41,228 bases of DNA from Gammaproteobacteria bacterium (lineage in GTDB: Bacteria > Pseudomonadota > Gammaproteobacteria > Steroidobacterales > Steroidobacteraceae): NCBI GenBank assembly GCA_005877965.1, contig VBNP01000025.1:1-41228 (forward strand), written 5' to 3'. The position numbers were made by a program, and so were the translations under genes. Of the stretch, positions 9,837 to 25,037 are shown in pieces; within the stretch, counting starts at the first letter, position 1; each line of letters opens with the position of its first letter. The notes beneath the pieces were generated by a model that saw only the letters and a program-made list of their open reading frames with translations, searched no databases and was not told where the DNA came from.

Positions 9837-10937
9837 CTAGCAAACCTCCCGGGCCCGCGCGGCGGCAGGAATCGCCTGTCGCAGCAGCTCCGGACCCACT
9901 CCGGGGGCCCGCGCACCTTCACTCAAAGTGCGCCGGTAGTCGCGTGCCCCGGGCTCGCCGCTGTACAAGCCGAGCATGTGGCGCGTGATGGCGGCGAGGT
10001 GCCCGCCGGCGGCGAGCTCGCGCTCGGCGTAACGCTGCATGCGCGCGATGAGCGCCTCGCGGGTGGGTGCGACGCCGGCACCGGGACGCAGCGCGCACCG
10101 CAACTCGGCGAGCACGTACGGCCGGTGGTAGGCCTCGCGCCCGAGCATGACGCCGTCGCACCAGCTGAGCGCCTCGAGCACCGCGGGCGGCTCGCGCAGA
10201 CCGCCGTTGACCACGATCGGCAATGATGGGAATGCCGCCTTCAGCCGCCGCACGATCTCGTAGCGCAGTGGCGGGATCTCGCGGTTGTCCTTAGGTGACA
10301 GGCCACCCAACACCGCCTCGCGGGCATGCACGATGGCGGCCTGGCAGCCGCCATCGCGCACGCTGCTCACGAAGTGACACAGGGCCTCGAAATCGCTCTC
10401 ATCGAACTGCGCCACGCTGCCGTGCGCTCCCGGCTCCGCGCCATTCACCACGCCGATCCGCATTTTGACCGTGACCGGCACGCGCACCGCCGCGCGCATT
10501 GCGGCCACGCACTCGGCAACCCGGGCGGGCTCGTGCATCAGGCAGGCGCCGAAGGCGCCGCTGGCGACGCGGTCGCTCGGACAACCGCAGTTCAGGTTGA
10601 TCTCGTCGTAGCCAGCCTGCTCGCCGGCGCGTGCCGCCGCCGCGAGCTCGCGAGGCTCGCTGCCACCCAACTGCAGCGCGACCGGGTGCTCTTCGGGGTC
10701 GAACGCCAGCAATCGCGCGCCGTCACCGCGCACGATGGCCGCCGCGGTGATCATCTCGCTGTACAGCAGCACATCGGGCGAGAAGCCGCGCAGGAAGTAG
10801 CGGCAATGGCGGTCGGTCCAGTCCATCATGGGAGCGACTGAGATCCGCCGATCGAGCTTTTCAGCCTTTTGATCGGAGGAAATGCCTATTTTTGTAGGCG
10901 TTTCTGCGAGCGGCGTTTCTGGGGGATTCTGGGCCAT
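9837..10937 (-). CDS. dusA: tRNA dihydrouridine(20/20a) synthase DusA
   Basis: The 366-aa product has RISVAPMMDWTDRHCRYFLR near the N-terminus and a TIM-barrel Dus core (LNCGCPS, VTVKMRIG). The first ~35 codons (10836-10937) lie beyond the repeated core and may be supplied by an inserted element. Confidence 0.9.
   Translation of the reverse strand: MAQNPPETPLAETPTKIGISSDQKAEKLDRRISVAPMMDWTDRHCRYFLRGFSPDVLLYSEMITAAAIVRGDGARLLAFDPEEHPVALQLGGSEPRELAAAARAGEQAGYDEINLNCGCPSDRVASGAFGACLMHEPARVAECVAAMRAAVRVPVTVKMRIGVVNGAEPGAHGSVAQFDESDFEALCHFVSSVRDGGCQAAIVHAREAVLGGLSPKDNREIPPLRYEIVRRLKAAFPSLPIVVNGGLREPPAVLEALSWCDGVMLGREAYHRPYVLAELRCALRPGAGVAPTREALIARMQRYAERELAAGGHLAAITRHMLGLYSGEPGARDYRRTLSEGARAPGVGPELLRQAIPAAARAREVC
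10817..10835 (-). repeat. dusA 5' core, copy A (within the functional dusA; candidate att crossover region)
   Basis: TCCAGTCCATCATGGGAGC is identical to copy B at 18 of 19 positions. Beyond this core, similarity to B and C drops to roughly 60-70%, although the encoded peptide (RRI[SA]VAPMMDWT) is preserved. Confidence 0.6.
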
Positions 10938-11068: not shown

Positions 11069-11275
11069 CTACTTTCGGAGCTCGCGGTTCGCGTCGGCCC
11101 AGCCCATGGGCTGCTCGGCGCCGGATTCACAGCGCTGCTGCGTCTCGTTCAGAGCCGGTTCGTGCCAGGGCGGCGATTCGTAGCAGTCACCCTCGCGCGT
11201 AATGGAGTCCCACAGCTCCTCGAGCGTGCGCAGACTCTCTTCCCAGGACATCCGTTCGATCGCGGGTGTGGTCAT
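11069..11275 (-). CDS. putative addiction-module antitoxin component (TIGR02574-like), orphan
   Basis: The 68-aa product reads MSWEESLRTLEELWDSI...W...NRELRK. This matches the characteristic L..LaeeLWDSl ... W.ev pattern of that small antitoxin family. No intact RelE/ParE partner lies downstream. Confidence 0.65.
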   Translation of the reverse strand: MTTPAIERMSWEESLRTLEELWDSITREGDCYESPPWHEPALNETQQRCESGAEQPMGWADANRELRK

Positions 11276-11644: not shown

Positions 11645-12304
11645 TCAGAAGGCATATGCCGCACCCGCAAGAAAGTCGAACTGGAAGAACGAGGAACCCC
11701 GTACCCGCACCTGGCAGAGAGCACCGCTCCGATCCGAGCGGCAGAAGAACGCACTATCCGTATTAAGCGGCGTGAGAAGGCCGCGTCCTTCGAGGCGCAG
11801 CGAGAAATGGGGACTCACCGGCACGCGCAGGCCGAGTGCGAGAGATACCGAAAAACGCGTGTCTTCGTGACCGAGAGCAGCATCCGGGCTGAACCGCGTG
11901 ATCCCGAGACCGCCCGCGAGATAAGGCTTCACGCGCTGCGCCTCATCGAGCGCCACGGCGCCGCCGATGTGCAGATATTCCACGTCCATGCTGACGGGGG
12001 CGAGCGCATCTGCGCGCAGCACCGTGGACTGCCGACCGTAGAACAACTCGTATTGGCCGGATTCCTCGGCACGCGCATCGAGCGTGAGCGCGAAGGAGCC
12101 GTGGTCATCGAGCTCGACGTGCTGGCCGGCGTCGATCAGCTTGAAGCTGCCACCGACGCGGTAACCGATGAACGGAGTCACTTCAAACTGCTGCGCCTCG
12201 CGCGCGGGCCGCTCCGCCGTCGCGGGCGCGCTCGCGACCACGGCGCCGAGGAGCAACACGGTACGCAGTGCACCGCGCCAGCCTGATGTGCGCGCGCGCG
12301 TCAT
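11645..12304 (-). CDS. outer-membrane beta-barrel protein (OmpA-like beta-barrel/OmpW-like size)
   Basis: It has a signal peptide (MTRARTSGWRGALRTVLLLGAVVASAPATA), alternating beta-strand pattern and a C-terminal AAYAF ending in Phe. I start it at the ATG at 12304. Confidence 0.75.
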   Translation of the reverse strand: MTRARTSGWRGALRTVLLLGAVVASAPATAERPAREAQQFEVTPFIGYRVGGSFKLIDAGQHVELDDHGSFALTLDARAEESGQYELFYGRQSTVLRADALAPVSMDVEYLHIGGAVALDEAQRVKPYLAGGLGITRFSPDAALGHEDTRFSVSLALGLRVPVSPHFSLRLEGRGLLTPLNTDSAFFCRSDRSGALCQVRVRGSSFFQFDFLAGAAYAF

Positions 12305-12389
12305 CCCTCGTGAGCTCTCCTGGTCATGCGCTCTCACCCACACAACTGCCCTTGCGCCTCAGACTCGGCGGCTGCGGCTCGGCGCAAGG

Positions 12390-12857
12390 CTACTGCGGCT
12401 TGGCGACCATCAGCCAGAACACCAAGACCACGGCGGTGAACGCTGGCACGCCCAGCCAAAACCACAAGCGCGCGTACGCGCGATACCGTGAGCTGATCGA
12501 CGTACCCTCGCGTACCGACGTCCGGGCGAGGTCTCGCATCCGAAGCTGTAACCACACAACCGGAACCCAGCAAATGCCGGCGAGGCAGAACAACGCGATA
12601 GACCATGCGAGCCAGCCGTGGTTCAGTGGATAGCCAAGCAACCTCGCCAGCGCAAGGCCGGTCAGCGCCTGAACCACAATCGCGGGTAGTGTGAATAGCC
12701 AGTCAGCCAGCACGACTTTATCGGAGACCACCTGGATGGCCGCGGCATTTTCGGTGCGGTCAGTGATCCACTTGAAGAATGCGATTCCGAGGCCGGTCCC
12801 GAATAACACGGCTGCGCTGGTAACGTGGATCGCCTTGAGCAAGAGATAGGAGTTCAT
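12390..12857 (-). CDS. DUF2269 family integral membrane protein
   Basis: The 155-aa product has four hydrophobic helices. The N-terminus LLKAIHVTSAAVLFGTGLG is typical of DUF2269. Its start overlaps the stop of the upstream saccharopine-dehydrogenase-like gene by 4 nt. Confidence 0.8.
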   Translation of the reverse strand: MNSYLLLKAIHVTSAAVLFGTGLGIAFFKWITDRTENAAAIQVVSDKVVLADWLFTLPAIVVQALTGLALARLLGYPLNHGWLAWSIALFCLAGICWVPVVWLQLRMRDLARTSVREGTSISSRYRAYARLWFWLGVPAFTAVVLVFWLMVAKPQ

Positions 12858-13928
12858 TGCACCGTTTCGCTGATATCAAGCTCGCAAAGGGGTTCGAGAA
12901 ACTCTTCGACGGTCAATAAACCCATGCAGGGCATTGCCCCGGCCGGCAGTTGCGCGCCCGATGCGATCTTCCTCGCCAAGGCAATGGCGGCTCCGCACGG
13001 AATATGCGGCCCGTGATTTCGCTGGGCAATCAATGTCCACGTGATGTTCAGCGGCGCTTCGTCCGAACCTCGACCATCGAGTCTGACGAACATTCCTCCC
13101 TTGTCGCTGATGACCGGCTCCATCCATCGGCTGATGCGATTCAGCGGCATGGCAAAGGCACCCATGCCAGGCAAGATCCCGGCCTTCACAAGTCGAGCCA
13201 ACGTCCAAACCACCAGATGACCCACGTCGCTTGCGAACCCCGCTTGGAAGGAAACGGTTTTCACCGTGGGATATCGCAGTGGAAACAACTCGAGGTCGGG
13301 GATGTCGCAGCTTCCAAGCCACCGCTTTCCAAGCGGTTGCGGAAATCGATGCCTGCGCAAATCCAACCAGCCGTAGGCGTCCACCCATGCGCCGTTTTGC
13401 AAGGAGCGGAACGGCCTTCCGCCGTAACTGAAGATACCTTTGACCGTGGCCAATCCGGGGGCACGCGCCCCTGAACTTATACCGATATGAATCGAATCGA
13501 GCCGCCGAAACCTCCCCAGATACCGGTCTACCACCGCTGACGACAACGCCGGAACCGAACTCGCACCGCTAATCACACTCACACCGCTTGCCAAGGCCGA
13601 GGCATTGAGAGAGTCGATGCCGCCGACGAAGTGGCGACCGTCAGCCAAATCAACATAGTGACAACGCGCCTCGATCGCGGCGCGCGCAACCGAGTAATCC
13701 TGGCCTTGAAAGGGCCCTGCGGTGTGGATAAGGGTGTCGACCTGCATGCGAGCCAACGACCGCGCGAGATTGACGTCACGAGCGTCGATTGCGATCGCCT
13801 GTTCGGAGGGTAGACCCACTGCGTGGGCTGCGGCAGTAGCCCGACCTAAGGGACGGAGTCGACGCCAGGGCCGCGCCGATGCGCTGGCCGAAGAATCCGT
13901 AGCCTCCGAGCACCAGAACCGTCTGCAT
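12854..13928 (-). pseudogene. saccharopine dehydrogenase-like NAD(P)-binding protein, frameshifted near codon 25-30
   Basis: The Rossmann N-terminus MQTVLVLGGYGFFGQRIGAALAS starts at the ATG at 13928 in one frame. That frame stops after about 50 codons. The rest of the protein (...GRATAAAHAVGLPSEQAIAIDARD...HTAGPFQGQDY...) is in the frame offset by 1 nt. Total length is 1075 nt, which is not a multiple of 3. Confidence 0.65.
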
Positions 13929-14108
13929 TAGCGCCCGTCGCCGCCGCCAGGCCTTCGGGTGCGCTCCGTTTGGGATCCTTCGCCCGCTCGCGCGTTCTTG
14001 GAGGCGCCGGCTGAGTCGCAGTTCGACAATGGCAGGGGAACGTAGCAGGCCGTCCGACGCCCGAACCAGCGGTATCGGTTACCATGCTGGGCCAACAGCG
14101 CTTCATAC

Positions 14109-15572
14109 CTAGTGCGCGTGCATTCTGGCCATAAAGGCGAGCGCCTCATCCAGATCCCTCGGAGTGATCGCGTCGTCACGCCAGTATTCGCCGAAAAGAA
14201 AGGCAGCCGCAGTCTGGCCAGTCTGAGAACACACGGTGGCAAGTGCACGTGCCAGCGCACCGCTTTCGAGATGCTTTTCCATTATTGGCTGCGCTCTTGC
14301 CACCAACGCCTGGGCTGCAGCGATGTCACGCTGCGAGCTGTACAAATACGCAAGGCCCGACCAGGAGCGCAGATAGTCCGGATCAAGGCTTATGGCACGC
14401 TCGTACGCGTCCTTGGCACGCCGACTCAACGTGTCGGAGTCCACTCCAATCGACGCCTGCCTTGCCGACACTTCGCGCGCGAGTTGGGACAAAACCTCGC
14501 CGCTGTCGGCAAGTGCCGCTGCAGAAGGAGTGGATAATGCATCAAGCTTGTCCACGGCCCCTAGCGAAGCGCCGAAATTACCCTCCTGCAGATTCGCGCG
14601 TGCCAAGACGCGCAGCGATAGCTCACTGTTGGGATCTCCCTGGAGCGCCTCCGAGGCCAAGCGCAAGGCATTGGCCCGACGCTGCCACTGCAGGCTCAGG
14701 TCCGCCAGCCTGGCTTTGGTCTCGGCCTCAGGTAGCTTCCGCGGCTGTTCGTTATCCGCCGGTTCGCGCGGCACCTCCACGACGAAGACGTGCGCTGGCT
14801 CTTTCATCGCGCCCACTAACAGCTTATCCAGATCCTCATAACTGAACTTGAAACTTGCGGCAAACGCATCCGCTTCACTCTTGCCGTCCTGCATGAGACC
14901 CAGGTAACGCCCGAACTCATCCCGCAGCTTCCCTTCGACATACACCTCGCGCGCCAAGTACCAGCTCTCCGCTTCAAACAGGCTCTTGAAGCCAGATGAG
15001 CCGCGCAGTTGCGGATCGCTGCCTTGCACGCGCAACAAGATGCGCATCGGAATGAGTTTGGCCCCCAGCAGCGTCTGCGCAAACCCGGCAGATACGCCGC
15101 CGGTCTTTACCCGCCCCGACTCGAACTCGGTGTGGGCGAACAACTGCGGCACGCCAACCTGGAACCAATAGGGGGAGCGCGATGCCCGCCCATTCACCAA
15201 AAGGCTTCCGGTATAGCCGAACAGCGCACCCCAATACCGATTGTTCGAATCAGCCCCGGTATCGGTGATCACCGAGACCTCGTACCCGGAAAACTTAAAG
15301 GAGACCACGCCTACCTCGCCGAGCAGTTCCTTTTCCTGCTTGGGCGGCAGCTCGTAGATGTGAGTGGGAACGTGTTTTTCTGACAGCCGCAGAATGCGGG
15401 TGAGTGCCTTGTCGAAACGGGCTAGGTCGTGAGCTAGCGATACGGTATAGCCGCTGCCAGCGGCTGTAGTGACGTCGAAGTTTTTATACACGTAGCTCCA
15501 GTAGTCCTCGGCAATGGCAGCGTGGCTCACGGGGCAGAGCAACAAAGCGGCGTGGATGCTGGCACGTTGCAT
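14109..15572 (-). CDS. secreted hypothetical protein with C-terminal TPR-like repeats
   Basis: The 487-aa product has a signal peptide (MQRASIHAALLLCPVSHAAIA). The N-terminal ~270 aa match no family I recognise. The C-terminal half is helical and TPR-like (AKDAYERAISLDPDYLRSWSGLAYLY). Confidence 0.7.
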   Translation of the reverse strand: MQRASIHAALLLCPVSHAAIAEDYWSYVYKNFDVTTAAGSGYTVSLAHDLARFDKALTRILRLSEKHVPTHIYELPPKQEKELLGEVGVVSFKFSGYEVSVITDTGADSNNRYWGALFGYTGSLLVNGRASRSPYWFQVGVPQLFAHTEFESGRVKTGGVSAGFAQTLLGAKLIPMRILLRVQGSDPQLRGSSGFKSLFEAESWYLAREVYVEGKLRDEFGRYLGLMQDGKSEADAFAASFKFSYEDLDKLLVGAMKEPAHVFVVEVPREPADNEQPRKLPEAETKARLADLSLQWQRRANALRLASEALQGDPNSELSLRVLARANLQEGNFGASLGAVDKLDALSTPSAAALADSGEVLSQLAREVSARQASIGVDSDTLSRRAKDAYERAISLDPDYLRSWSGLAYLYSSQRDIAAAQALVARAQPIMEKHLESGALARALATVCSQTGQTAAAFLFGEYWRDDAITPRDLDEALAFMARMHAH

Positions 15573-15602
15573 GGTGTTGCCTCCCGCGGTTGTCGAAGCC
15601 GC

Positions 15603-16886
15603 TCAGAGTCCGACCCCGGGCACCGCATAGGCGCGAATACGACCGTATGCGCCTACCGCCTGGCGGATCTCCGGCCGGCTGCGCACGGCCTTTTGTCGCT
15701 CGCGCCAGCCGATCGCTCGTGCAGGACCCGGGTTGTCCGCGTAATCCTGCAATTCCACCAGCGCATCGGTTCGCAGGTCGGGATCGGAGAGCCGTGCAAC
15801 GAGGGTGGCGGCGGCCTCGTCTTCTCTTCCGGCAATGATCAAGGCGCTTTCACGGGTGCCCGGATAGTCCTGCGCGTGAGCGCGCAGGTCATCCAGCGCC
15901 GCCTCGAGGCCGGCCGCATCATCGAGTTCCGAGGCGACCACCACCCGCACCCAGGCAGCGACAGCGTGTCCATACACGCTCGCGTGTTCAAGAGGCGGAA
16001 TGGCGGCCAGCGCCTCCTGCGGACGATTCAGCGCCGCGAGGAAGCTCGCAAGATTGAGCGAATGGCTGACCAGATCCTCGCTTGATTCCTGGCAGGCGCG
16101 GCGCAGGAGCGCGACCGTCTCATCGTACCGTCCGAGTGCGCTCAAGGCACGTGCGCGCACGTTGAGAATCCACGGAAACTCCCGCTGCAGATCTTCGTAG
16201 GGAGAGGACTCAGGAGTTGCCGCCTGCTTACCCTGCAGCACCGGATCGGTCAGTTTCAGAACCTCGTCATAGCGATGCAGCAGCATGAACCCCCGGGCGA
16301 CCTGCACAACCCGACTGAGATCGCGCGGCCGCTGCCTGGCTGCAGCCTGGCGCTGTTCGAGTTCTTTCCGGGTGGCTTTGAGGATGTCTCGCTCCACAAA
16401 CTCTGATTTTGCGATGCGCTTGTAACGGTTGTCGGCCTGCAAACCAACCAAGGCGTAAGGATCGGTGATGTGTGCCGCAACCGCAAAGGCTTCCTGCTGC
16501 CGGTTGTGTTCCAGAAGATCCAGACTAAGCTGCAGCCACCAGCGGCTGGGTTCGCTGCCGTCACTGTGCAGCCACCGCAGCTCATAGAGCATTTGCAGCA
16601 GTTCAATGCGTGATCGCCCGAGTCGCGCCGGCTCGGACTCGCTGACCGCTTGTTCGATAAGGCGATGCGGCAGCGTGTTTAGTGCCCAGGTCCAGCGGCG
16701 GCCGATCGTCGTGACACAGAGGAGCTCATCGGCAGCATCGTGATGTTTCGCGGCCGCGGCTAACCGATCACTCCACTGTTTGTACTCGGCGGTGGCCTCC
16801 TCACTCGCACAGGCAATCGCAGAATATCCGTATACCAGCGTCGCCATTGTGAAGGCGGACGCGAGCACCGAGGCGCGCCGCCCCAC
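15603..16886 (-). CDS. secreted hypothetical helical-repeat protein
   Basis: The ORF is open to 17027. A GTG at 16886 gives a plausible signal peptide (GRRASVLASAFTMATLVYGYSAIACA/SEE). The rest is helical-repeat/TPR-like. It ends 30 nt upstream of the start of the next gene in the operon (14109-15572). Confidence 0.55.
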   Translation of the reverse strand: MGRRASVLASAFTMATLVYGYSAIACASEEATAEYKQWSDRLAAAAKHHDAADELLCVTTIGRRWTWALNTLPHRLIEQAVSESEPARLGRSRIELLQMLYELRWLHSDGSEPSRWWLQLSLDLLEHNRQQEAFAVAAHITDPYALVGLQADNRYKRIAKSEFVERDILKATRKELEQRQAAARQRPRDLSRVVQVARGFMLLHRYDEVLKLTDPVLQGKQAATPESSPYEDLQREFPWILNVRARALSALGRYDETVALLRRACQESSEDLVSHSLNLASFLAALNRPQEALAAIPPLEHASVYGHAVAAWVRVVVASELDDAAGLEAALDDLRAHAQDYPGTRESALIIAGREDEAAATLVARLSDPDLRTDALVELQDYADNPGPARAIGWRERQKAVRSRPEIRQAVGAYGRIRAYAVPGVGL

Positions 16887-17063
16887 CGAGGCCCAATGCG
16901 GTGCCTTGTTTGTTTGAGGTCTGTCGGACAGTTCATCCCAAAACCCCAATTCGCCTAGACAAGCAGTAACTATGCCCCTCCCGGGCAAGCTGCCGAAATC
17001 TGAGGTGACGTAAAGGTGACAAGCCATTCTTTGGGCCTACAAGTGATTGATTCGACAACCTCA

Positions 17064-17159
17064 TTAGACTTCGTTGGTCCAGTCCATCATCGGAGCCACG
17101 GCGATGCGGCGATCTAACTTCGACGCGCCGACGGAGTTACTATTCAGACGCGTCGTCAT
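17064..17159 (-). pseudogene. displaced dusA 5' fragment with its own ATG (31 codons; contains repeat copy B at 17078-17126)
   Basis: It translates as MTTRLNSNSVGASKLDRRIAVAPMMDWTNEV-stop. The ATG at 17159 lies inside the last codons of the nucleotidyltransferase gene. The DusA sequence ends right after the MMDWT core. Confidence 0.55.
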
Positions 17160-17766
17160 CCAGACCCTTGCCGGAGTCACGCTCTAACTCGCTGCGCTTC
17201 GACGAGTCATGCTTCTCAGCTGCCCGCTCCTCGAGACCTCGCTCGGCGTGAAAGTCGCGGGTGATCTGGTCGCGCATTCGACTGCGCAATTGCTGGTCAA
17301 TTTGGGTCTGGTCCAGCAATGTAAACAATCGCTCCTCGGAAACGATTCCGCGACGAGCAAGTTCACGTGTGAATATCAGGTCCTTCTCGCGCGCCGCGGC
17401 ATACTTTGCGATAGCGAGGTCATGAGGATCGAGGCACAGCCCTCTCACGCCCTCGGTCTCGCCGGGAGGCAAGTTCACCAAACGCTCTTTCCAGCCCTTC
17501 GGAAGGGTCGCAGTGTTCAAGTCAACCGGGTCAGCGTAGTAGCCGAGACTTTCGTGAAACGGTGAATCGACCCCTATTACGTTGAGCCATTCGGTTCGAT
17601 CTGCATTTTTCGACGCGACCAGATCCACCTCAAACGACGTGAGGATCTCGTCGGCAATATCCGGGTACTTTCCGTGGAGAGACTGGCTCCCAATAATGAT
17701 GAACTGCTTTTCGCCAGTGATGCGGCCAGCAGCGCGCAGCACATGATCAACCTGCTGCTTCTTCAT
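17140..17766 (-). CDS. Pol-beta-fold nucleotidyltransferase-like protein (DUF6036-like), putative TA toxin component
   Basis: The 208-aa product has FIIIGSQSLHG...EVDLV (an hG[SG] ... [DE]xD nucleotidyltransferase signature), GYYADPV..TATLPKGW and a C-terminal AKYAAAREKD helix. Its start overlaps the upstream AbrB-type gene by 20 nt. Confidence 0.7.
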   Translation of the reverse strand: MKKQQVDHVLRAAGRITGEKQFIIIGSQSLHGKYPDIADEILTSFEVDLVASKNADRTEWLNVIGVDSPFHESLGYYADPVDLNTATLPKGWKERLVNLPPGETEGVRGLCLDPHDLAIAKYAAAREKDLIFTRELARRGIVSEERLFTLLDQTQIDQQLRSRMRDQITRDFHAERGLEERAAEKHDSSKRSELERDSGKGLDDDASE

Positions 17767-18187
17767 TTAATTTTCTGACTTGCTCTTTCGGAAGTAATCC
17801 GACGAACGGCGCCGATTGTCGAAGTCGGACCGCGTTCTCGTCACGGCCGAGCATTGCGGCGAAGAGTTCTCCATCGTCTAGCCCCTCCGCAATGTCTTGC
17901 CATTCTTTGTAAGCCGCACCCCAAACACCCTGTCGTCTCCAACGATGGAGGTTCGCGAGAATCTGCGCGCGTATTTCGCGGGGCGTGAACCGGCGTACGA
18001 CCTCAAGAGCCATGGTTCGCCTGAGCTCGTCCAATTCATGGTGCATGAAGCCCCCCCGCCCAGCGGGACGAAGGCCGTGTTCCGTCAGGTGCAGAGCGTC
18101 GCCCTCGCCCACGCCCCACGCGTCGAGCGTTGCCTTCGGAAGTAAGACCCCGAGGGAATTTCCGATACGTCGTACAGCAACTTTCAT
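17747..18187 (-). CDS. AbrB/MazE/SpoVT-family DNA-binding protein with ~100-aa C-terminal extension, putative antitoxin
   Basis: MKVAVRRIGNSLGVLLPKATLDAWGVGEGDALHL is a typical swapped-hairpin AbrB/MazE N-domain. I start it at the ATG at 18187. The longer track ORF (to 18343) only adds the dusA remnant MAPMMYWTD. Confidence 0.8.
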   Translation of the reverse strand: MKVAVRRIGNSLGVLLPKATLDAWGVGEGDALHLTEHGLRPAGRGGFMHHELDELRRTMALEVVRRFTPREIRAQILANLHRWRRQGVWGAAYKEWQDIAEGLDDGELFAAMLGRDENAVRLRQSAPFVGLLPKEQVRKLNEEAAG

Positions 18188-18193
18188 AGTGCA

Positions 18194-18222
18194 ATTATAA
18201 CATGTTATTACATCTACGGCAA
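18194..18222 (-). promoter_or_regulatory. sigma70-like promoter of the AbrB-type gene, predicted leaderless; overlaps the 12-bp palindrome ATAACATGTTAT (18197-18208)
   Basis: The minus strand reads TTGCCG-17 nt-TATAAT-tgcact-ATG. With the -10 ending 6 nt before the ATG, the transcript would start at or next to the start codon. A perfect palindrome spans the spacer and the -10. Confidence 0.5.
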
Positions 18223-18321
18223 AATGTCCGGCAGATTGAATACCGGGGCGACGTAAAGGAGACACGGGCGTTTCGCGCCTGTCCAAGCACATGATTCCAC
18301 GCGGGAAATCAACTCCGTCCG

Positions 18322-18370
18322 TCCAGTACATCATCGGAGCCACGGCGATGCGGCGATCTAACTTCGACGC
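18322..18370 (-). repeat. dusA 5' core, copy C (distal remnant, no start codon)
   Basis: It is identical to copy B (17078-17126) at 48 of 49 nt, with the single mismatch at 17084 C versus 18328 A. It encodes ...NSVEASKLDRRIAVAPMMYWTD and then diverges from DusA. Weaker similarity (~60%) extends about 35 nt to the left and 14 nt to the right. Confidence 0.85.
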
Positions 18371-18401
18371 CTCGACAGAATTGCGGGACTCCCCTGCTCG
18401 C

Positions 18402-19760
18402 CTACCTCGAGAACCCTACAACGAGCACGATGGCAATCCCAAGCGGACAAACGTAGCGCAGCGCGAACAACAGCAGCCGTCGCGACCGGAGAGATAGACC
18501 ACTCAGTTCGCCTTCCGGAATCCGTTTCCCCATCCGCCAGCCGATGAACACGCTGACCAGAAGCGCTGAGATCGGCATGAGCAGGTTGGCAGCCAGAAAA
18601 TCGACCACGGCAAAGAAATTCAATCCTGCCAGGCGGGGAATCGACCGCAGCGGATGCCAGTCCTTCAAGTGGCCGAACGAAAGCACCGAGCCCTGACCGA
18701 TCAGCCAGCCGGCGCCCAGGCACAGGCACGCCGCGGTCGCGCGCCTCAGGCCGGCGCGCTCCGACAGCCACGCAATCCAGGGTTCCATGAGGCCAATCGA
18801 AGGAGTGAATGCGGCCAGCGCGAGAAGCGCGAAGAACAGAGTGCCGATGAGGCGGCCGCCGGGCATTTCGGCAAACGCTATCGGCAGAACCTGAAAGACG
18901 AGTTCCGGACCCTCGGCGGGGTTCAGACCGTAGTGGAACATCAGCGGGAAGATCACCACCGTCGCGAGGAGCGATACTACGAAGATCGAACCGACAACGG
19001 CCGTTACGCTGCGCTGCAGAGACTCCCCGACCGGCATGTACGCCCCGTAGGCGATGATGATGCCGGCGCTCACGCCCATCGCAAACAGCGCCTGGCCGAC
19101 GGCGCCGAGAACAACCACCGATGTGAGCCGGCTCAGGTCCGGCGCAAATGCGAAGCGCAGTCCGCGCGCCACGTCTCCGGTAGCCAGCGAGTATGCGACG
19201 AGCACCAGGAGAATCGCGAGCAGCCCGGGCGCACGCCAGCGGTTGGCCCATTCGACCCCGCGATTCAGTTGCCGGGCCGAAACGACAGCAACCAGCGCGA
19301 AAAATCCCAGCTGCCACAGCGATACAGCGCGTGAATCGGCAACAAACGCGTGGAACTTCGCGACCACCGCGGGCGGTCCACGAGCGTAGTTGCCGGAAAG
19401 AAAGTACCAGGTGTAGGCGAGCACCCAGCCGGCGATCATCGTGTAGTACGAGATGATCAGGAACCCGGCGATAGAGCCGGTCCACCCGACGACGTCCCAC
19501 AGCGCTGAGTCCCCAAAGCGTCCGGCTATGACGCCCGCCGCCCGTGGCGGGGAGTGCCTCGACCATCGGCCGAGCACTGCCTCGGCGATGAAGACCGGAG
19601 CACCGAAGGCCAGACAAGCGAGGACGAATACCGCGATGAATGCGAATCCGCCCCCGGCGGCTGCCAGATACGGAAAGCGCCAGATGCTGCCCATGCCGAC
19701 GGCGGCTCCGACGGCGCCGAGCAGGAATCCCAGCCGCGAGACCCACCGCTGGCTGTTCAC
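18402..19760 (-). CDS. sodium-dependent transporter, neurotransmitter:sodium symporter (NSS/SNF) family
   Basis: The 452-aa product has the N-terminal motif RLGFLLGAVGAAVGMGSIWRFPY and is predicted to be a multi-pass membrane protein (about 11-12 transmembrane helices by eye). Confidence 0.9.
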   Translation of the reverse strand: MNSQRWVSRLGFLLGAVGAAVGMGSIWRFPYLAAAGGGFAFIAVFVLACLAFGAPVFIAEAVLGRWSRHSPPRAAGVIAGRFGDSALWDVVGWTGSIAGFLIISYYTMIAGWVLAYTWYFLSGNYARGPPAVVAKFHAFVADSRAVSLWQLGFFALVAVVSARQLNRGVEWANRWRAPGLLAILLVLVAYSLATGDVARGLRFAFAPDLSRLTSVVVLGAVGQALFAMGVSAGIIIAYGAYMPVGESLQRSVTAVVGSIFVVSLLATVVIFPLMFHYGLNPAEGPELVFQVLPIAFAEMPGGRLIGTLFFALLALAAFTPSIGLMEPWIAWLSERAGLRRATAACLCLGAGWLIGQGSVLSFGHLKDWHPLRSIPRLAGLNFFAVVDFLAANLLMPISALLVSVFIGWRMGKRIPEGELSGLSLRSRRLLLFALRYVCPLGIAIVLVVGFSR

Positions 19761-19806
19761 GCTGATCGTTCTGTCAAGCCGGGCGCCCGCAGCGGCGCCG
19801 TGCCGG

Positions 19807-20628
19807 TCACGGAATGATGGCGATCACGCGCGCCGGGAAGCCGGTACCGCCATCCGGCTTCGGCCAGGTCACGATGAGGAGTGCACCCGCCTCGGGGACC
19901 TGGTCCAGGTTCGTCAGCATCTCGATCTGGTAGTGGTTGAGACCGAGTATGTAACTCTCCAGTGAGTAATCATCGTGCGTCGTCGCGACGCCGGGATCGG
20001 TATCGGTGGTCTCATGGCCCGAGGCCGTGATCTTGCGGTCCTCAAACAGGAGCTTCAGAACGTCCTTGCTCCAGCCGGGATAGTGGGCGACACCTGCGGC
20101 GTCCCGGTTCTGCATGGCGGCATCGTTGGGCCAGCGCTTCGCCCAGTCAGTGCGCATGGCCACGAACGCATGCTCCGGAATGCGACCGTGCTTCGCCTCC
20201 CAATCGCTCACGTCTTCGAGCGCCAGCGTGTAGTCCGGATTCCTGGCGACCTTGCCATGCACGTCGATGACGACGAGTGGCAGCAGCATTTCCTGCGGCG
20301 GAATCTGATCTACCGTGCGCAGACCCTCGTGGAAATGCGCCGGCGCGTCGATATGGGTACCCCACTGCCCCACATGAGTGAACTGCTGCACGGTGAAACC
20401 GTCTTTCTTTATTGTGTACAGCGTCGTCACTCTCTCCTCGCCGAAGCCCTTCCAGTGCGGCGTGGTCGGCCCGAACGTGTGCGTGAGATCGACGAATCGC
20501 TTCGTCGCCAGGGTGGCGTAAACATCGCTCAGGCCGACGGCAGGCTTGGCAGGGGCGGACGCCGCGCCGGCTGTGTACAGGACCGCGGCAGCCGCGCTGA
20601 TGGCTGCGACTCGTGTCTTGTTCAACAT
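19807..20628 (-). CDS. cyclase-family protein (kynurenine formamidase-like metal hydrolase), secreted
   Basis: It has a signal peptide (MLNKTRVAAISAAAAVLYTAGAASA) followed by FVDLTHTF...GTHIDAPAHF, typical of the putative cyclase family. I start it at the ATG at 20628. Confidence 0.85.
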   Translation of the reverse strand: MLNKTRVAAISAAAAVLYTAGAASAPAKPAVGLSDVYATLATKRFVDLTHTFGPTTPHWKGFGEERVTTLYTIKKDGFTVQQFTHVGQWGTHIDAPAHFHEGLRTVDQIPPQEMLLPLVVIDVHGKVARNPDYTLALEDVSDWEAKHGRIPEHAFVAMRTDWAKRWPNDAAMQNRDAAGVAHYPGWSKDVLKLLFEDRKITASGHETTDTDPGVATTHDDYSLESYILGLNHYQIEMLTNLDQVPEAGALLIVTWPKPDGGTGFPARVIAIIP

Positions 20629-20706
20629 CACTCTCCCTCCCCTGGTACAGCAGCGCCGAGTCCCGCCGGGCCGCTCGCCTGACAGGCCCGGCCGCATCCG
20701 CTGTCT

Positions 20707-23130
20707 CTAGAATTTGTAGTGCAGGTGTACCTTGAACCACCGCGGCATGCCGGGATACACCTGCGCCAGGCCGTTGATCGACGTGTTGTCGAAGCCCATC
20801 GTGCCGTAGTGCTTGTCGGCGAGATTCTCGACCGAGACACCGATCTCGAGCTTGCCGCTCGCAGGTGTGTAGCTCGCGCGCGCGTTCGCGATGCCGAACG
20901 CCGACTGCAGCACCGCCGGGTTGTCGGACAGGTTGAACCAGAAACTCGACAGGTAGTTGCCGTCGACTTGCAGCGCAACGTGTCCGCTGCCGACGGGAAA
21001 CGTGTAACGCGCCATCGCGTTCGCGGTCCATTTCGGCGCGTTGCCCGGCACGTAGTCGCCCTTGACCCCGGTCCCGCGCGTATCGACGTTCTTCACGATC
21101 GCATCGACGTAGGCGACACCGGCGCCGAAACGCCACGCTTCGGAGGGCGCCCACTCGAGCTCGAGCTCGGCGCCTTTGTGCGTGGCGTCGGCGTTGACGA
21201 TCAGCTGCTCGAGGCTGACGGTGTAGATCAGTGCCTGGTAGTCCTTGTAGTCGTAGTAATACGCCGCGCCGTTCAAGCGCAGCCTGCGATCGAGGAACTC
21301 GGACTTCAACCCGACCTCGTAGGAGGTCAGCTTCTCGGGCCTGAAGATCAGTGCGCTCGTGTCGTTGATGAAGAACGGAAACAGCGGTGCGGTGAAACCG
21401 CCACCCTTGACGCCGCGGTTGACGCCGGCGTAGGCGAGCAGATCCGGTGCGAGGTGGAAGTCGAGCTGCGCCTTGCCGCTGAACAGCGTGTCGGAGCGAC
21501 TGTTGGGGTAGTGGTGCAACTGCAAACTCGCCGTCTGCGTCAGCACGGTGATCTGCCCGGTCGGGCTCTGCGGATAGTAGAGGTACGGGATCCAGGTGAA
21601 ATCAAAGTCCTTCTTGTCCGAGGTTACCCGGCCACCGAGAGTTAGCCCGAGGAGGTCGGTGAAGCGGTACTCGACCTGGGCGAACCCCGCGTACGACTTG
21701 GTCAGCAGGCTGTACGGCGAGCGCGTCGCGGGAACCGAGCCCGGCGGCGCCAGCGTCGAGCCGGGTGGCGCCTGGACGACGTCGTTCCAGTACGGCGCCG
21801 TGCCGATGGGCCAGGCGCCATCTAGTGGGAACCCATAGGCTTTCTGATAATTCTGCCTGTTCGGATTGGTCGGGCTGTTGAATTCCTGCGCGGTAAAGAA
21901 TGCAGGACCCTCCCAGCCCTCGAAATAATCGCCGTTGATGCGCAGCCCATAAATGCCCGCGGTCCAGTTCAGCTTCTTGTCTCCCCCGTTCAGCCGCGCC
22001 TCGATCGACTGCTGGTCGACGTTGCTGCCGTTGAAGAACTGGAACAGCGTGACCGGCGAGGCGTCCGAATCCTCCTGGTAATCCTTGCGCCAGGTCGAGT
22101 AGTCTCCGATGACGGTCAGCGACTTACCGGCGAAATCGCGCGTGTACCGAGCAGTGAAACCGGTGGCCTTCTCGCGCGTAAAGCCGCTGATGCTGTCACG
22201 GATCACGAACGGGCCGCTGTTCTTCAGGCCGCTCGCGTTGCAGCCCGGGCACGTGACGTAGGGGTTGTCGTTCGGACCTGCGAGTGCGTCGTAGCCGGTC
22301 GAAATCGGCAGCGTCGCGTATTCCTCCCACGAGCCGGCGTGCACGTCCTGGCGCGCGTAGCGCGCACTCATGAGCAGCTGGGAACTGTCCGGCAGCTTGA
22401 ACAGCAACTGGGCGCGCAACGCGAAGTCGTTGCCGTTCTCGGCATCACTCGCGCCGCCAAACAGGTTGCGAAACAGCGGGTCGTAGTGATTGGACTGGAA
22501 CGCGAAACGCCCGTCGACGCTGCTCGACAACGGGCCGTTGATCGCGCCCTCGACGCGCCCGAGGTTGCGCTGGCCGAAGGTCGTGTCGAGGTAACCGCCG
22601 GCCTGGTCGGTCGGCTTGCGGGTGATGTAGTTCGCGAGTCCACCGGTCGCGTTGCGGCCGAACAGCGTCCCCTGCGGCCCGCGCAGCACCTCGACACGGT
22701 CGACGTCGAACACCGAGAACGCCAGGCCGACCATCTGGCTCACGTAGACATCGTCGACGTAGATCGCGGCCGGGCTCTCCTGGTGGTCGGCGAAGTCGTT
22801 CTGCACCACGCCGCGGATCGCGAGGCTGAAGGAGGATGGACCGTTCGGCTGCGTCAGCACGACCGCCGGCATCGATTTCGTGATGTCGGTGGCGCCCACG
22901 ACTCCGAGGTCGGTCAAGTCCGCCGCGCTGATCGCCGACATTGCGATGCCGATGTCCTGCAGGTTCTGCTCGCGCTTTTGCGCCGTGACGATGACCTCCT
23001 GAAGCCCGCCGGCCGGCTCCGTCGATGCCGGAGCCTGCTGGGCAGCAACCGTCTGCAGGAGCGCTGCGGACACGCACGCCAATGCGGCCAGGATGACTCG
23101 CGCTTTAGTCGTCGATTCCGGTTTTTTCAT
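20707..23130 (-). CDS. TonB-dependent receptor
   Basis: The 807-aa product has a signal peptide, a plug domain (EVIVTAQKREQNLQDIGIAMSAI...VEVLRGPQGTLFGRNATGG) and a 22-strand-type barrel ending ...HLHYKF. Confidence 0.9.
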   Translation of the reverse strand: MKKPESTTKARVILAALACVSAALLQTVAAQQAPASTEPAGGLQEVIVTAQKREQNLQDIGIAMSAISAADLTDLGVVGATDITKSMPAVVLTQPNGPSSFSLAIRGVVQNDFADHQESPAAIYVDDVYVSQMVGLAFSVFDVDRVEVLRGPQGTLFGRNATGGLANYITRKPTDQAGGYLDTTFGQRNLGRVEGAINGPLSSSVDGRFAFQSNHYDPLFRNLFGGASDAENGNDFALRAQLLFKLPDSSQLLMSARYARQDVHAGSWEEYATLPISTGYDALAGPNDNPYVTCPGCNASGLKNSGPFVIRDSISGFTREKATGFTARYTRDFAGKSLTVIGDYSTWRKDYQEDSDASPVTLFQFFNGSNVDQQSIEARLNGGDKKLNWTAGIYGLRINGDYFEGWEGPAFFTAQEFNSPTNPNRQNYQKAYGFPLDGAWPIGTAPYWNDVVQAPPGSTLAPPGSVPATRSPYSLLTKSYAGFAQVEYRFTDLLGLTLGGRVTSDKKDFDFTWIPYLYYPQSPTGQITVLTQTASLQLHHYPNSRSDTLFSGKAQLDFHLAPDLLAYAGVNRGVKGGGFTAPLFPFFINDTSALIFRPEKLTSYEVGLKSEFLDRRLRLNGAAYYYDYKDYQALIYTVSLEQLIVNADATHKGAELELEWAPSEAWRFGAGVAYVDAIVKNVDTRGTGVKGDYVPGNAPKWTANAMARYTFPVGSGHVALQVDGNYLSSFWFNLSDNPAVLQSAFGIANARASYTPASGKLEIGVSVENLADKHYGTMGFDNTSINGLAQVYPGMPRWFKVHLHYKF

Positions 23131-23168
23131 GGTGTTCTGCCATAGTTATTGGTTCTGATGTTGCACGC

Positions 23169-24272
23169 TCACGTCCCGACACGTCCGTGCCGATCAGGGC
23201 GTACGAGCGGAATCACCTCACTCGTCCAACCGTATGGGTCGGGCGCCCGCCTCTCCTGGATGGCGAGCAGCCGCTCGCGAAGCTCACGCGCCCGAGCGTC
23301 GATCACTCCTGGCCGATATTCACGGCCGTCGCTGTCGCCGATAAGGCTGATCGGGCAGACGATGGCCGCGGTGCCGCAGGCAAATACCTCACTGCACTCT
23401 CCGCTCGCGAGTTGTCGCAGCAGCTCCGCGACAGCCATGCTTCTCTCGATGACGCGCCAGCCCGAATCACGCGCCAGCACGATCAGGGAGTCACGGGTCA
23501 CGCCCGGCAAAATCGAATCGTTGAGAACCGGCGTATGCAGCTCATCGCCGATGACCGCGAACAGATTCATGCCGGAGAGCTCTTCAATGTTCTGCCGCGT
23601 CGTAGGATCGAGCCACAGAGCGACCGTGTAGCCGCGTTCGACGGCACGCGTCGACGCCAGCAACGAAGCCGCATAGTTCGCCCCGGCCTTCACCGTTCCG
23701 AGCCCCCCGGCGGCGGCCCTGACCTGCTCGCGCTCGATCAGAACCTTCATGACGCCCGCGGAGTAGGCCTCGGACGGGTTCGCGATGACCATGAAGCGCG
23801 CGCTAGTGGAGGCGCGCACCGCGTACCCCGGTTCGGTGCCGAACAGGAACGGCCGCACGTACAGCGACTGGCCGGACTTGTCCGGCACAAACGCAGTACA
23901 AGCCCCGACCACCGCGTGAATGCCTTCAAGGAACAGTTCCTGCGGCACCGGCCTCATGGCAAGTCGTTCGGCGGATCTCTTGAAGCGCAGGTAGTTATCT
24001 CGTGCGCGGAACAGATTCGCGGCCGGGCGACCAACCCGGTAGGCCTTCATGCCCTCGAACACCTGTTCCGCGAAATGCAGCGCGCGAGCGCCGGGCAATA
24101 TCTCGATCGCTCCGTACGGCAGCAGCTCGCCCTGCTTCCATTGCCCGCCCTCGAAAGTTGCGCTGTACATCACCGGTGCGGCGACCAGTCCGAAGCCCAG
24201 GGAATCCGGCAGCCTGAAATCCGCGAGGCATTTCCAGACTTCATTCCGAACGAGGTAGGCGGCGGTCGGCAC
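23169..24272 (-). CDS. ilvE: branched-chain amino acid aminotransferase (class IV PLP enzyme)
   Basis: It contains FEGMKAYR, YVRPFLFG, GTVKAGANYAASL and LPGVTRDS motifs. I start it at the GTG at 24272, preceded by GGAG with a 7-nt spacer. The longer track ORF would overlap the SDR gene. Confidence 0.85.
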   Translation of the reverse strand: MPTAAYLVRNEVWKCLADFRLPDSLGFGLVAAPVMYSATFEGGQWKQGELLPYGAIEILPGARALHFAEQVFEGMKAYRVGRPAANLFRARDNYLRFKRSAERLAMRPVPQELFLEGIHAVVGACTAFVPDKSGQSLYVRPFLFGTEPGYAVRASTSARFMVIANPSEAYSAGVMKVLIEREQVRAAAGGLGTVKAGANYAASLLASTRAVERGYTVALWLDPTTRQNIEELSGMNLFAVIGDELHTPVLNDSILPGVTRDSLIVLARDSGWRVIERSMAVAELLRQLASGECSEVFACGTAAIVCPISLIGDSDGREYRPGVIDARARELRERLLAIQERRAPDPYGWTSEVIPLVRPDRHGRVGT

Positions 24273-24301
24273 GTGCGGACTCCGTGATCGAGCAAACGAT
24301 C

Positions 24302-25036
24302 TCAAATCGACTGCAGCAGCCCGCCATCGCAGGCGATTGCCTGGCCGGTTACGTAGCCCGCCGGATCCGATGCCAGGAACGCCGCCACCGCGGCAAGCTC
24401 CTGCGGGCGTGCGAGCCTGCCGGCCGGAATCTGCGCTGCCAGCTTGGTTACATCGAGCTGCAGTTCCTCGAGTCGCTCGGTCAGTGTGTATCCTGGCATG
24501 AGCGCATTGACGGTGACCTGGTCCGCGGAGACTTCCCGGCTGAGCGCATTGACGAGACCATGCAGGCCCGCACGCAGTGAGTTGGACAGCATCAGATTGG
24601 CTACCGGCTCGCGCGCAGCGATTGAGGTGATGAGGATGACTCGCCCCCAGCGCCGCGCACGCATTCCGGGCAGCGCGCTGCGAATGGCGCCGACGCCGCT
24701 CATCCACAAGCCTTCAAAGGCGGCTCGCCACGCGGCATCCGACAAGTCTACGAACAGCCCCGGTGGTGGCCCCCCGGTATTGACGACCAGGACGTCGAGC
24801 GGCCCGATGCGCTTCTCCGTCTCACGGATGAGGGCCGCGGCAGCGCCAGGGGCCGACAGGTCGCAGACGATTCCCTCTACGCCAAGCTCGAGGGCGGTCG
24901 CGCCGAGACGCTCGGCGTTACGAGCACAGATCGCCACGCGCGCGCCTTCCGCAACCAGCGCCTGCGCAATGGCTTTGCCGAGCCCGCGCGAGCCGCCCAT
25001 CACGAGCGCGCGACGCCCCTCCAAGCCAAGATTCAC
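24302..25036 (-). CDS. SDR-family oxidoreductase
   Basis: The 244-aa product has the cofactor-binding motif ALVMGGSRGLGKAIA and classical SDR length and layout. Confidence 0.9.
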   Translation of the reverse strand: MNLGLEGRRALVMGGSRGLGKAIAQALVAEGARVAICARNAERLGATALELGVEGIVCDLSAPGAAAALIRETEKRIGPLDVLVVNTGGPPPGLFVDLSDAAWRAAFEGLWMSGVGAIRSALPGMRARRWGRVILITSIAAREPVANLMLSNSLRAGLHGLVNALSREVSADQVTVNALMPGYTLTERLEELQLDVTKLAAQIPAGRLARPQELAAVAAFLASDPAGYVTGQAIACDGGLLQSI

Positions 25037-25037
25037 C

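Follow-up and report, generated by a model that had tools for sequence, protein, structure and literature searches.

The window analyzed here is a stretch of 41,228 nucleotides from a gammaproteobacterium of the Steroidobacteraceae (contig VBNP01000025.1 of assembly GCA_005877965.1). It holds a 1.24-kb cassette in which two overlapping genes, one for an AbrB-type antitoxin-like protein and the other for a DUF6036 nucleotidyltransferase, lie between direct repeats that correspond to the 5′ end of dusA. On balance, the evidence presented below favors the view that the cassette is an integrase-less dusA mini-element, similar to a cis-mobilizable element (CIME), which carries a candidate nucleotidyltransferase toxin-antitoxin module.

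The repeats (17068-17138 and 18312-18382) are 71 nt long with 89% identity and are spaced 1244 bp apart. Their core (17078-17126 and 18322-18370) is the same at 48 of 49 positions and includes 42 nt of exact identity, which bears out both the near-identical 49-bp repeats and the spacing given in the original prediction. The 30-nt repeat core occurred twice in the 41-kb window and had no match in 100 shuffles. On the minus strand, both repeats code for the DusA N-terminus ASKLDRRIAVAPMM[D/Y]WT and contain CCGATGATG[G/T]ACTGGAC, which encodes ...VAPMM[D/Y]WT. The left repeat (18312..18382, minus strand) is a displaced, attL-like dusA 5′-end fragment that encodes VEASKLDRRIAVAPMMYWTDG. It has the 21-nt core CCGATGATGTACTGGACGGAC (18337..18317, minus strand) and gave an nhmmer match to the attachment site (att) with P′ arm at an E-value of 2e-20, and on its upstream side stands a truncated cassette-type P arm that starts ~14 nt past the stop codon of an NSS transporter gene (18402). 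The right repeat (17068..17138, minus strand; core CCGATGATGGACTGGACCAAC, 17093..17073, minus strand) is an attR/attL hybrid which matched the same att and P′ arm profile with an E-value of 4e-25. The repeats are therefore of the attachment-site type that had been proposed, as they encode the DusA N-terminus in the manner of dusA-specific islands.

The P arm and core of the right repeat together form a 31-codon, dusA-5′-like ORF, an open reading frame (17064..17159, minus strand) encoding MTTRLNSNSVGASKLDRRIAVAPMMDWTNEV and ending with a TAA codon at 17066-17064. The frame opens with an ATG (17159-17157) that falls among the final codons of the nucleotidyltransferase gene (stop codon at 17142-17140) and shares its reading frame with the dusA-like fragment. 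This ATG had been viewed as a replacement dusA start and the cassette as the donor of a dusA 5′ end. The location of the codon within the end of the nucleotidyltransferase gene is as proposed, but it is not a working start in this copy, in which it opens onto a 31-codon dead end. Similarly, donation of a 5′ end does not apply to this copy, whereas it does apply to the related loci L003, L013, and L019 described below. The intact dusA gene, the cognate target (9837..10937, minus strand; Pfam Dus, E 7e-74), is 6.1 kb from the cassette, has its own start at 10937, and shares only ~80% identity with the repeats at its 5′ end. The interval between the cassette and dusA contains two TPR-like genes, one saccharopine-dehydrogenase-like gene, one DUF2269 gene, and one gene for an outer-membrane beta-barrel protein, and metabolic genes fill the window from 18.4 to 27.6 kb; neither stretch has an integrase gene. 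Both repeats are also present in six independent contigs from metagenomes or metagenome-assembled genomes (MAGs), which are collinear with the window and 97.7-99.5% identical to it. Thus, the arrangement is real and not an assembly artefact.

Several smaller features were noted near dusA. A P′-arm-type motif, CTGTCGCCTTTACCTCGCC, which resembles an old att remnant, lies just upstream of the intact dusA gene (window ~10950-11000), and L017 has a comparable partial arm ahead of its dusA gene. A degenerate att core upstream of the P′ motif of the 'U' segment near dusA is plausible in L001 (CCCATGGGCTGGGTCGAC) and not evident in the window; this assignment is tentative. A 180-nt indel (11044-11223) separates the window from the population contigs L090 and L091.

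The antitoxin-like gene and its promoter-like site

Only two sensible ORFs, both on the minus strand and overlapping by 20 nt, are present between the repeats, in agreement with the two genes and the overlap reported initially. The first (17747..18187, minus strand) encodes a 146-residue antitoxin-like protein with an AbrB/MazE swapped-hairpin N-domain (residues ~1-45) and a conserved six-helix C-domain (residues ~49-145) of the kind encoded upstream of DUF6036 genes. The Pfam family MazE_antitoxin matched residues 5-36 with 24.7 bits, which is exactly the gathering cutoff, and 25 of 25 homologues also matched. Homologues number 1950 and nearly all are exactly 146 residues long. The AlphaFold2 (AF2) model of the protein, with a predicted local distance difference test (pLDDT) score of 81.8, has a beta domain at the N-terminus and six helices after it. 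Comparison of the model with the PDB by Foldseek returned nothing under an E-value of 0.39, and in sequence and profile searches of the PDB the only matches were marginal ones of the AbrB N-domain to 'addiction module antidote' entries. No Pfam family matched the ~100-residue C-domain, which is consistent with its original description as uncharacterized.

A promoter-like site (18194..18222, minus strand) comprises a -35 element TTGCCG, a 17-nt spacer, and a TG-extended -10 element TATAAT. It matches at 10 of 12 positions, with one such site found against 0.5 expected. The -10 element stops 6 nt short of the ATG of the antitoxin-like gene, and the mRNA may therefore lack a leader. Overlapping with the -10 element is a perfect 12-nt palindrome, ATAACATGTTAT (18197-18208), which is conserved in L001 and has a near-identical version in L002 and L003. 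Its position and conservation mark the palindrome as a candidate AbrB operator.

An open frame also extends from the displaced dusA fragment (GTG at 18343) into the AbrB gene (18187-18343, minus strand), and gene callers therefore give over-long products of 194-220 residues (P0121-P0127). In these products, the antitoxin-like protein is extended by residues derived from dusA, a fusion that lacks conservation, as L002 and L003 have a stop codon there.

The DUF6036 nucleotidyltransferase

The second gene (17140..17766, minus strand) encodes a 208-residue protein with a nucleotidyltransferase-type fold, the candidate toxin of the pair. The Pfam DUF6036 match (38 bits, E 1.9e-9), which is shared by 22 of 22 homologues, agrees with the initial assignment, as does the G-S...E-x-D motif recognized by inspection. 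The core of the protein, residues 1 to ~175, contains G26-S27...E46-x-D48. In the wide nucleotidyltransferase family, D116 and D129 are invariant and G26-S27 and E46 nearly so; D48 shows no variation among close homologues. Homologues comprise 2880 close relatives, and a representative library contained 2202 clusters at 50% identity. Profile searches thus placed both cassette genes in Pfam families, whereas structure prediction yielded a usable model for the partner and not for the nucleotidyltransferase, so the fold assignment of the latter derives from Pfam and motif inspection.

The P arm encodes the tail of the nucleotidyltransferase (residues ~176-208), which is variable and has internal deletions, yet its last residues, ...SGKGLDDDASE, are conserved and overlap with the start region of dusA. 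As the tail varies while the end overlapping the dusA start is kept, the pattern suggests constraint on the DNA or on dusA initiation and not on the enzyme.

No PDB relative of the nucleotidyltransferase emerged from sequence and profile searches, including those with a deeper alignment (A7), and no homologue was present in 50,697 phage records. HMM (hidden Markov model) searches with PADLOC and NCBIfam gave no toxin-antitoxin-family match for the nucleotidyltransferase, and DUF6036 was mentioned nowhere in the paper library searched. The view that the pair is uncharacterized is thereby upheld. Alignments made with hhalign between the nucleotidyltransferase and either an AbiEii protein from L030 (probability 0.3%) or a second DUF6036-like protein of the window were uninformative, as the profiles were of low diversity (Neff 1.5).

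Attachment-site arms and dusA-linked relatives

Comparisons were made with 85 fetched loci, which comprised 80 loci from species-representative genomes and five contigs. Downstream of the core, the cassette has a conserved ~95-nt P′ arm (18224..18316, minus strand) that ends with two direct 7-mers of 11-nt period (GTCTCCTttacGTCGCCC, 18263..18246). At the outer cassette edge, the P′ arm of the next segment, which carries the TPR genes (16981..17072, minus strand), bears the 7-mers GTCACCTttacGTCACCT at 17020..17003. An alignment of 11 arms from eight genomes, representing five cargo types, gave a common layout of the core CCGATGATGGAYTGGACCGAC, ~30 nt, TCAGnnACTTA, ~20 nt, and then GCTTGTCNCCTTTACGTCNCCTC, within which the paired 7-mers reside. 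The background frequency of the paired 7-mer motif is 0.03 per kb. On the grounds of position and conservation, the paired 7-mers are candidate integrase arm-type sites.

The P′ arm is constant regardless of cargo, which may be the AbrB-DUF6036 pair, VapBC (L010, L012), the TPR segment of the window, a relaxase element (L009), or near-nothing (L001), and every displaced dusA fragment precedes such an arm. Searches with nhmmer located the att site and P′ arm directly upstream of the AbrB gene in nine distinct genomes; all were dusA-linked loci and there were none among the non-dusA loci.

The right repeat is the live 5′ end of dusA in 11 genomes, with the cassette directly abutting the gene. 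In L003, from a Steroidobacteraceae MAG, a displaced native dusA 5′ fragment encoding SISRKLPVVPMMDWTG followed by a stop codon is situated ~170 nt upstream of the AbrB gene, and dusA opens with the cassette-type sequence LDRRVAVAPMMDWTDRHCRYFL; the entire insert measures 1,460 bp. The cassette ATG that overlaps the 3′ end of the nucleotidyltransferase gene reads into full-length dusA in L013 and L019. In L003, L009, and L013, the two ends are identical over just ~16-21 nt of core. The toxin-antitoxin-like-only, repeat-bounded unit that was perceived in the window therefore recurs in other genomes, and the finding is more general than this one copy, as the relatives show a recurrent mini-element.

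Other units accompany the pair at dusA. L012 has a VapBC-only unit of 1.4 kb (12797-14203) in which att-VapBC-att is joined to dusA. In L009, the cassette is in tandem with an element that codes for DprA-like, NikA-like, and MobA/VirD2 relaxase proteins. Overall, the dusA 5′ region is a hotspot of small att-bounded segments, many with toxin-antitoxin modules.

Further observations were made at these loci. In L010 (7950-10934), a HigA-like gene and VapC precede the AbrB-DUF6036 pair in a single att-bounded segment, VapBC and HipBA adjoin the displaced dusA fragment in L003 (6344-9258), and L030 contains an AbiEi/AbiEii pair (12499-13901). A 19-nt tandem duplication (GCGTCGAGGTTAGATCGCC, twice) is present in the P arm of the L001 cassette (10620-11041), and a 353-bp 'cargo-less' unit consisting of att, P′ arm, P arm, and att joined to dusA is interposed between the cassette and dusA in the same locus.

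The same pair at other sites and on plasmids

Most homologous pairs (L022-L085) are located away from dusA, and their nucleotidyltransferases are ~172-177 residues long and lack the tail. Several of these pairs are bounded by direct repeats 1.1-1.6 kb apart and are the sole cargo. Repeats at the 3′ end of tRNA-Leu(UAA) flank the pair in L066 (60 nt, 98% identity, 1632 bp apart) and L024 (40 nt, 1308 bp apart), and tRNA-Leu(UAA) is directly upstream of the pair in L027 and L047. Two further boundary types enclose units of 1.1-1.5 kb: 83-nt repeats in L041 (2372-2454, 3844-3926), and ~52-nt repeats in L061 (9404-9455, 10549-10598), each of which contains a perfect 19-bp hairpin, AATGGGGTCAGAGTACATT...AATGTACTCTGACCCCAT. 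In L025, the pair is followed by a Fic gene and has a divergent tyrosine integrase gene (Pfam E 1e-31) 215 nt away. This integrase was considered as the enzyme for the dusA cassettes and was rejected, because its relatives adjoin partial tRNA 3′ ends and not dusA. As the pair lies between repeats at tRNA-Leu and elsewhere and is found in the L025 integrase island, it is genuine integrative-element cargo and repeatedly the sole content between att sites.

The AbrB-type gene is directly upstream of the nucleotidyltransferase gene, with the same 20-nt overlap, in 85 of the 85 loci. The two families thus are genomically linked, as their pairing in the original prediction implied. DUF6036 homologues also occur on 57 plasmids, 28 of which are conjugative. 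In the three plasmids inspected (H1, H5, and H9), an overlapping partner gene precedes the DUF6036 gene in each case. The C-domain of the cassette partner has homologues in the C-terminal parts of the proteins whose genes directly precede plasmid DUF6036 genes. The partner on Methylovorus plasmid pMsip01 has a DUF6088-like N-domain and shares the C-domain according to hhalign (probability 98.5%, E 2.5e-15); the partner on a Hydrogenophaga plasmid has an Xre-type helix-turn-helix (HTH) N-domain attached to the same C-domain (hhalign probability 92.4%, E 5e-7); and the pALIDE01 partner is a 109-residue stand-alone version with a weak ...LRQxSPxxxLLP motif. The genes accordingly resemble a type II-like system in being small, co-directional, and overlapping with the first coding for a DNA-binding domain, and in having a patchy, mobile distribution with AbrB, Xre-HTH, or DUF6088-like N-domains on a shared C-domain. 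The dedicated partner domain, the swapped DNA-binding domains, the overlap, and plasmid carriage together make the pair a candidate type II-like toxin-antitoxin family and, judged from these sequence features, the AbrB-DUF6036 pair a candidate new nucleotidyltransferase toxin-antitoxin family. By analogy, the cassette might also act in defense.

Two plasmid contexts were noted in addition. The DUF6036 protein of pMsip01 (L087 2501-3271) has a C-terminal KfrB domain (E 8e-13) and is encoded directly after the traI relaxase gene. In pALIDE01, the DUF6036 pair adjoins an AbiEii pair and a site-specific integrase gene. The window itself contains a second candidate pair (26048-26858, plus strand) that is conserved in L001, L006, L013, and L015. 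A 112-residue Xre-type HTH protein (HTH_31, E 1.3e-10), which lacks the C-domain of the antitoxin-like protein of the cassette, overlaps by 38 nt with a 169-residue partner that has a weak DUF6036 match (23.1 bits, cutoff 23.6) and the motifs VGATA...DADI and SKLASNRPQDQQD.

Integrase genes and the present state of the cassette

No integrase Pfam match was detected in the window between 11.6 and 27.6 kb. Motif scans of 86 loci and tblastn searches with two integrases revealed no recombinase beside any dusA-linked cassette; the only integrases in the 86-locus scan were those of L076, 9 kb from the pair, and L025, of the tRNA-site type. The long P arm between the nucleotidyltransferase gene and att in L002, L009, L010, and L012 was inspected for an integrase remnant and gave no Pfam match. 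As the unit lacks an integrase, it is CIME-like or a remnant rather than an autonomous element. The window copy appears fixed in the sampled population. It is probably a resident, stabilized passenger now, as it is apart from dusA, its start ORF is a dead end, and its position is the same across the population.

Certain results weigh against a CIME-like mini-element with a toxin-antitoxin module. The comparison genomes are almost all MAGs. A dusA-specific integrase was present in none of ~20 dusA loci, which makes a trans-acting enzyme hypothetical; the integrase scans relied on two tblastn queries and on regular expressions, which divergent recombinases could escape. Pattern scans of metagenome contigs gave zero matches for an empty site or for a circle or tandem junction, although rare events could escape such scans, and the cassette occupies the same position in six of six population contigs with no sign of current excision. 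As for the module, an alignment of 22 sequences yielded an AF2 model of the nucleotidyltransferase of insufficient quality (pLDDT 54.7), no Pfam AbiEii/DUF1814 match was obtained at E-values up to 10 among 22 nucleotidyltransferase members, and PADLOC-DB v2 gave no match for either protein at E-values up to 0.1.

Cassette and flanking genes have different histories

The lack of an integrase in the unit and its surroundings, together with the invariant position and the missing junctions, would also be expected if the cassette were an inert scar, that is, the last remnant of an ancient dusA island, vertically inherited and with its repeats as leftover attL and attR sites. Divergence of the cassette was compared with that of flanking genes. 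Across 91 pairs from 14 dusA-linked loci, cassette and dusA identities were uncorrelated (r=-0.03). A synonymous proxy, defined as third-codon-position identity in codons with identical amino acids and with the dusA, cyclase-FHA, and PEPCK genes as the flank, gave r=0.08 for 66 pairs, and the discordance ran both ways. The cassette was the more similar for L002-L010 (cassette 0.90, flank 0.64), L010-L007 (0.86, 0.57), L013-L020 (0.79, 0.65), and window-L001 (0.95, 0.87), and the more divergent for window-L013 (0.50, 0.73) and window-L021 (0.46, 0.68). Some pairs were alike, as the scar would require (window-L002, 0.71 and 0.71; window-L003, 0.64 and 0.67 for cassette and flank, respectively). 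Simple vertical inheritance was in fact suspected since identities to L001, L002, and L003 tracked those of the flanks, but was overturned by the 66- and 91-pair analyses. As its divergence is uncorrelated with that of flanking genes, the cassette moved or was replaced horizontally.

Gene order gave the same indication. Three unlike left flanks accompany cassettes that share at least 96.7% identity, namely an NSS transporter gene in the window, a Cu-oxidase/'U' segment in L001, and a DUF885 gene in L086. Despite ~90% identity between the window and L001, the cassette and an outer-membrane protein/'U' segment are in swapped order in the two, and the L001 junction is a hybrid formed within the P′ motif. 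With the discordant divergence, the multiple left flanks, the altered order, and the repeat-bounded occurrence of the same pair at tRNA-Leu and elsewhere all opposed to it, the inert scar is an unlikely explanation.

Equally unlikely is spread by homologous recombination, in which the dusA fragment, P′ arm, and dusA would serve as homology arms after transformation, transduction, or conjugation and the repeats would be kept by gene conversion. This alternative accommodates the 42-nt identity of the window repeats, which extends well past the 21-nt core on the P-arm side, the L001 hybrid junction, which resembles an exchange between arms, and the failure to find a cognate integrase in the scanned loci. 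It is at odds with the end identity of L003, L009, and L013, which is confined to the core as for site-specific att sites, and with the paired 7-mers, whose fixed distance from the core resembles that of recombinase arm sites. Moreover, the left homology arm would be just ~100-150 nt, and beyond it the left flanks are unrelated.

The surroundings of the cassette also differ among close relatives. A 13.7-kb stretch of the window (12271-26011) is missing at the corresponding position (L001 5432-5537) in the closest relatives L001 and L006, the flanks of which are ~88-91% identical. The stretch contains TPR, SacDH-like, DUF2269, cassette, NSS transporter, cyclase, TonB-receptor, aminotransferase IV, SDR, and CMD genes; L001 instead has a cassette directly before dusA. 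The GC content drops from ~68-70% to 56-64% across window 12-19 kb. The stretch was evaluated as an att-bounded island and was rejected as such, as it has metabolic genes and no dusA fragment at the outer boundary. In addition, contig L090 (1-2258 against window 19912-22147) is 99.5% identical below ~19800 and 82.6% identical upstream, in the cyclase and TonB-receptor genes, and this fall in identity places a recombination breakpoint near the NSS/cyclase junction.

Function of the pair

For the mini-element to carry a toxin-antitoxin module, the nucleotidyltransferase must be more than a benign enzyme with its regulator. Pol-beta-fold nucleotidyltransferases include antibiotic-modifying enzymes, and the pair might nucleotidylate an antibiotic or another small molecule, or act as a stress-response modifier, as ordinary island cargo. 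The same alternative was raised by Makarova et al. for MNT-HEPN (PMC2701414). The absence of PADLOC and toxin-antitoxin-family HMM matches for the nucleotidyltransferase agrees with this proposal, as does the partner C-domain, which is large and folded and thus unusual for type II antitoxins. In opposition are the strict overlap coupling in all 85 loci, the swapping of DNA-binding domains on a conserved partner domain, the enrichment of the pair at att hotspots beside VapBC, HipBA, HigA-like, and AbiE modules, its presence beside an AbiEii pair on conjugative plasmids, and its retention as the only genes in several repeat-bounded units. A benign role thus is rather improbable, and a toxin-antitoxin-like pair is the preferred interpretation.

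In MNT-HEPN systems the nucleotidyltransferase is the antitoxin, and a reversed polarity of this kind, as in type VII HepT-MntA, with the enzyme modifying a 146-residue protein whose C-domain, which is large, highly conserved, and without a PDB relative in the Foldseek search, is toxic, is very unlikely here, since the first gene bears a DNA-binding domain typical of antitoxins, the C-domain has neither a HEPN family match nor the invariant Rx4-6H motif, and the MenT and AbiEii precedents place the nucleotidyltransferase downstream as the toxin.

With the pair taken as a toxin-antitoxin-like module in a CIME-like mini-element, the following scheme can be proposed. The module would be transcribed from the promoter-like site at 18222-18194, and the AbrB/MazE N-domain would bind the palindrome over the -10 element to autoregulate the operon. 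The helical C-domain may bind or otherwise neutralize the DUF6036 nucleotidyltransferase, which would be translated by coupling via the 20-nt overlap. Upon loss of the antitoxin, the nucleotidyltransferase would arrest growth by nucleotidylating an essential molecule, possibly tRNA 3′ ends by analogy with MenT and AbiEii toxins. Addiction of this type could explain why the AbrB-DUF6036 pair remains between att sites. Its past movement would have relied on an integrase supplied in trans, on co-excision with a tandem island (cis-mobilization), or on homologous recombination through the conserved arms.

In a broader model, the 5′ end of dusA in Steroidobacteraceae-like bacteria would accommodate an array resembling that of an integron. 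Its components would be integrase-less mini-cassettes (AbrB-DUF6036, VapBC, and others), each with a core and P and P′ arms, which would be shuffled by a trans-acting, dusA-specific integrase from transient islands or phages, and the persistence of which would be driven by AbrB-DUF6036 addiction or abortive infection. This model is speculative and should be viewed as a tentative possibility.

Relation to known systems

According to Farrugia et al. (2015; PMC4482086), dusA-specific islands insert in the 5′ end of the gene, for which they provide a replacement, and have semiconserved repeats of ~21 bp on either side. A dusA-associated tyrosine integrase is the sole gene shared by all of the 94 islands described, the sizes of which range over 4.76-184.8 kb with the smallest at 4,758 bp (PMC4482086). 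The cassette has the same target, the region encoding APMxDWTD, and ~21-nt semiconserved direct repeats, and in its relatives there is a substitute dusA 5′ end with the native 5′ end displaced upstream. It differs in being 1.24 kb (1.4-2.1 kb in relatives), in lacking an integrase, and in carrying only a toxin-antitoxin-like pair. Furthermore, the window cassette no longer adjoins dusA and supplies no functional 5′ end.

CIMEs have been defined as what remains of decayed integrative and conjugative elements (ICEs) or integrative and mobilizable elements; they undergo accretion with incoming elements, and the transfer of tandems of a CIME and an ICE has been observed (PMC5704250). Like CIMEs, the cassette keeps attL (core and P′ arm) and attR (P arm and core), lacks integration and transfer genes, and occurs in tandem arrays with other att-bounded segments, such as the relaxase element of L009. 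However, CIMEs were defined at tRNA or other 3′-end sites in Firmicutes, whereas the cassette is at the dusA 5′ end in Steroidobacteraceae-like Gammaproteobacteria. Moreover, its cargo is one toxin-antitoxin-like module that recurs across genomes and att sites, and its mobilization is hypothetical.

MenT nucleotidyltransferase toxins pair with varied antitoxins, and the partner of MenT1 is MazE-related (PMC7450476). As in MenAT and AbiE, the nucleotidyltransferase-fold gene of the cassette is downstream of a variable partner gene and its Pol-beta-type motif is conserved. In contrast to MenAT/AbiE (DUF1814), the cassette enzyme is a DUF6036 protein without an AbiEii match and its partner has a distinct ~100-residue C-domain. 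The difference from MNT-HEPN (type VII) is that the cassette partner has no HEPN family match and no invariant R-x4-6-H in alignment A3.

Like mosAT of SXT and sgiAT of SGI1, the cassette would be an addiction module in an integrated element or array, and it is comparable to the toxin-antitoxin cassettes of integrons as a small, repeat-bounded unit with only a toxin-antitoxin-like pair. Toxin-antitoxin modules such as mosAT and sgiAT stabilize integrative elements, and toxin-antitoxin cassettes are also found in chromosomal integron arrays. The cassette differs from these examples in that it has no remaining element to stabilize, has gene-fragment att sites and not attC, and lacks an integron integrase.

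If the present interpretation is correct, DUF6036 nucleotidyltransferases and a dedicated ~100-residue partner domain on interchangeable DNA-binding domains would constitute a large, uncharacterized candidate toxin-antitoxin family, with ~2,200 clusters at 50% identity and members on conjugative plasmids. The dusA hotspot would host integrase-less, att-bounded units that are far below the described island sizes, that contain an addiction module alone, and whose histories are independent of the host gene. The cassette would then offer a 1.2-kb system in which to test toxin-antitoxin modules as 'last survivors' of decaying islands, hitch-hiking on the recombinases of others.

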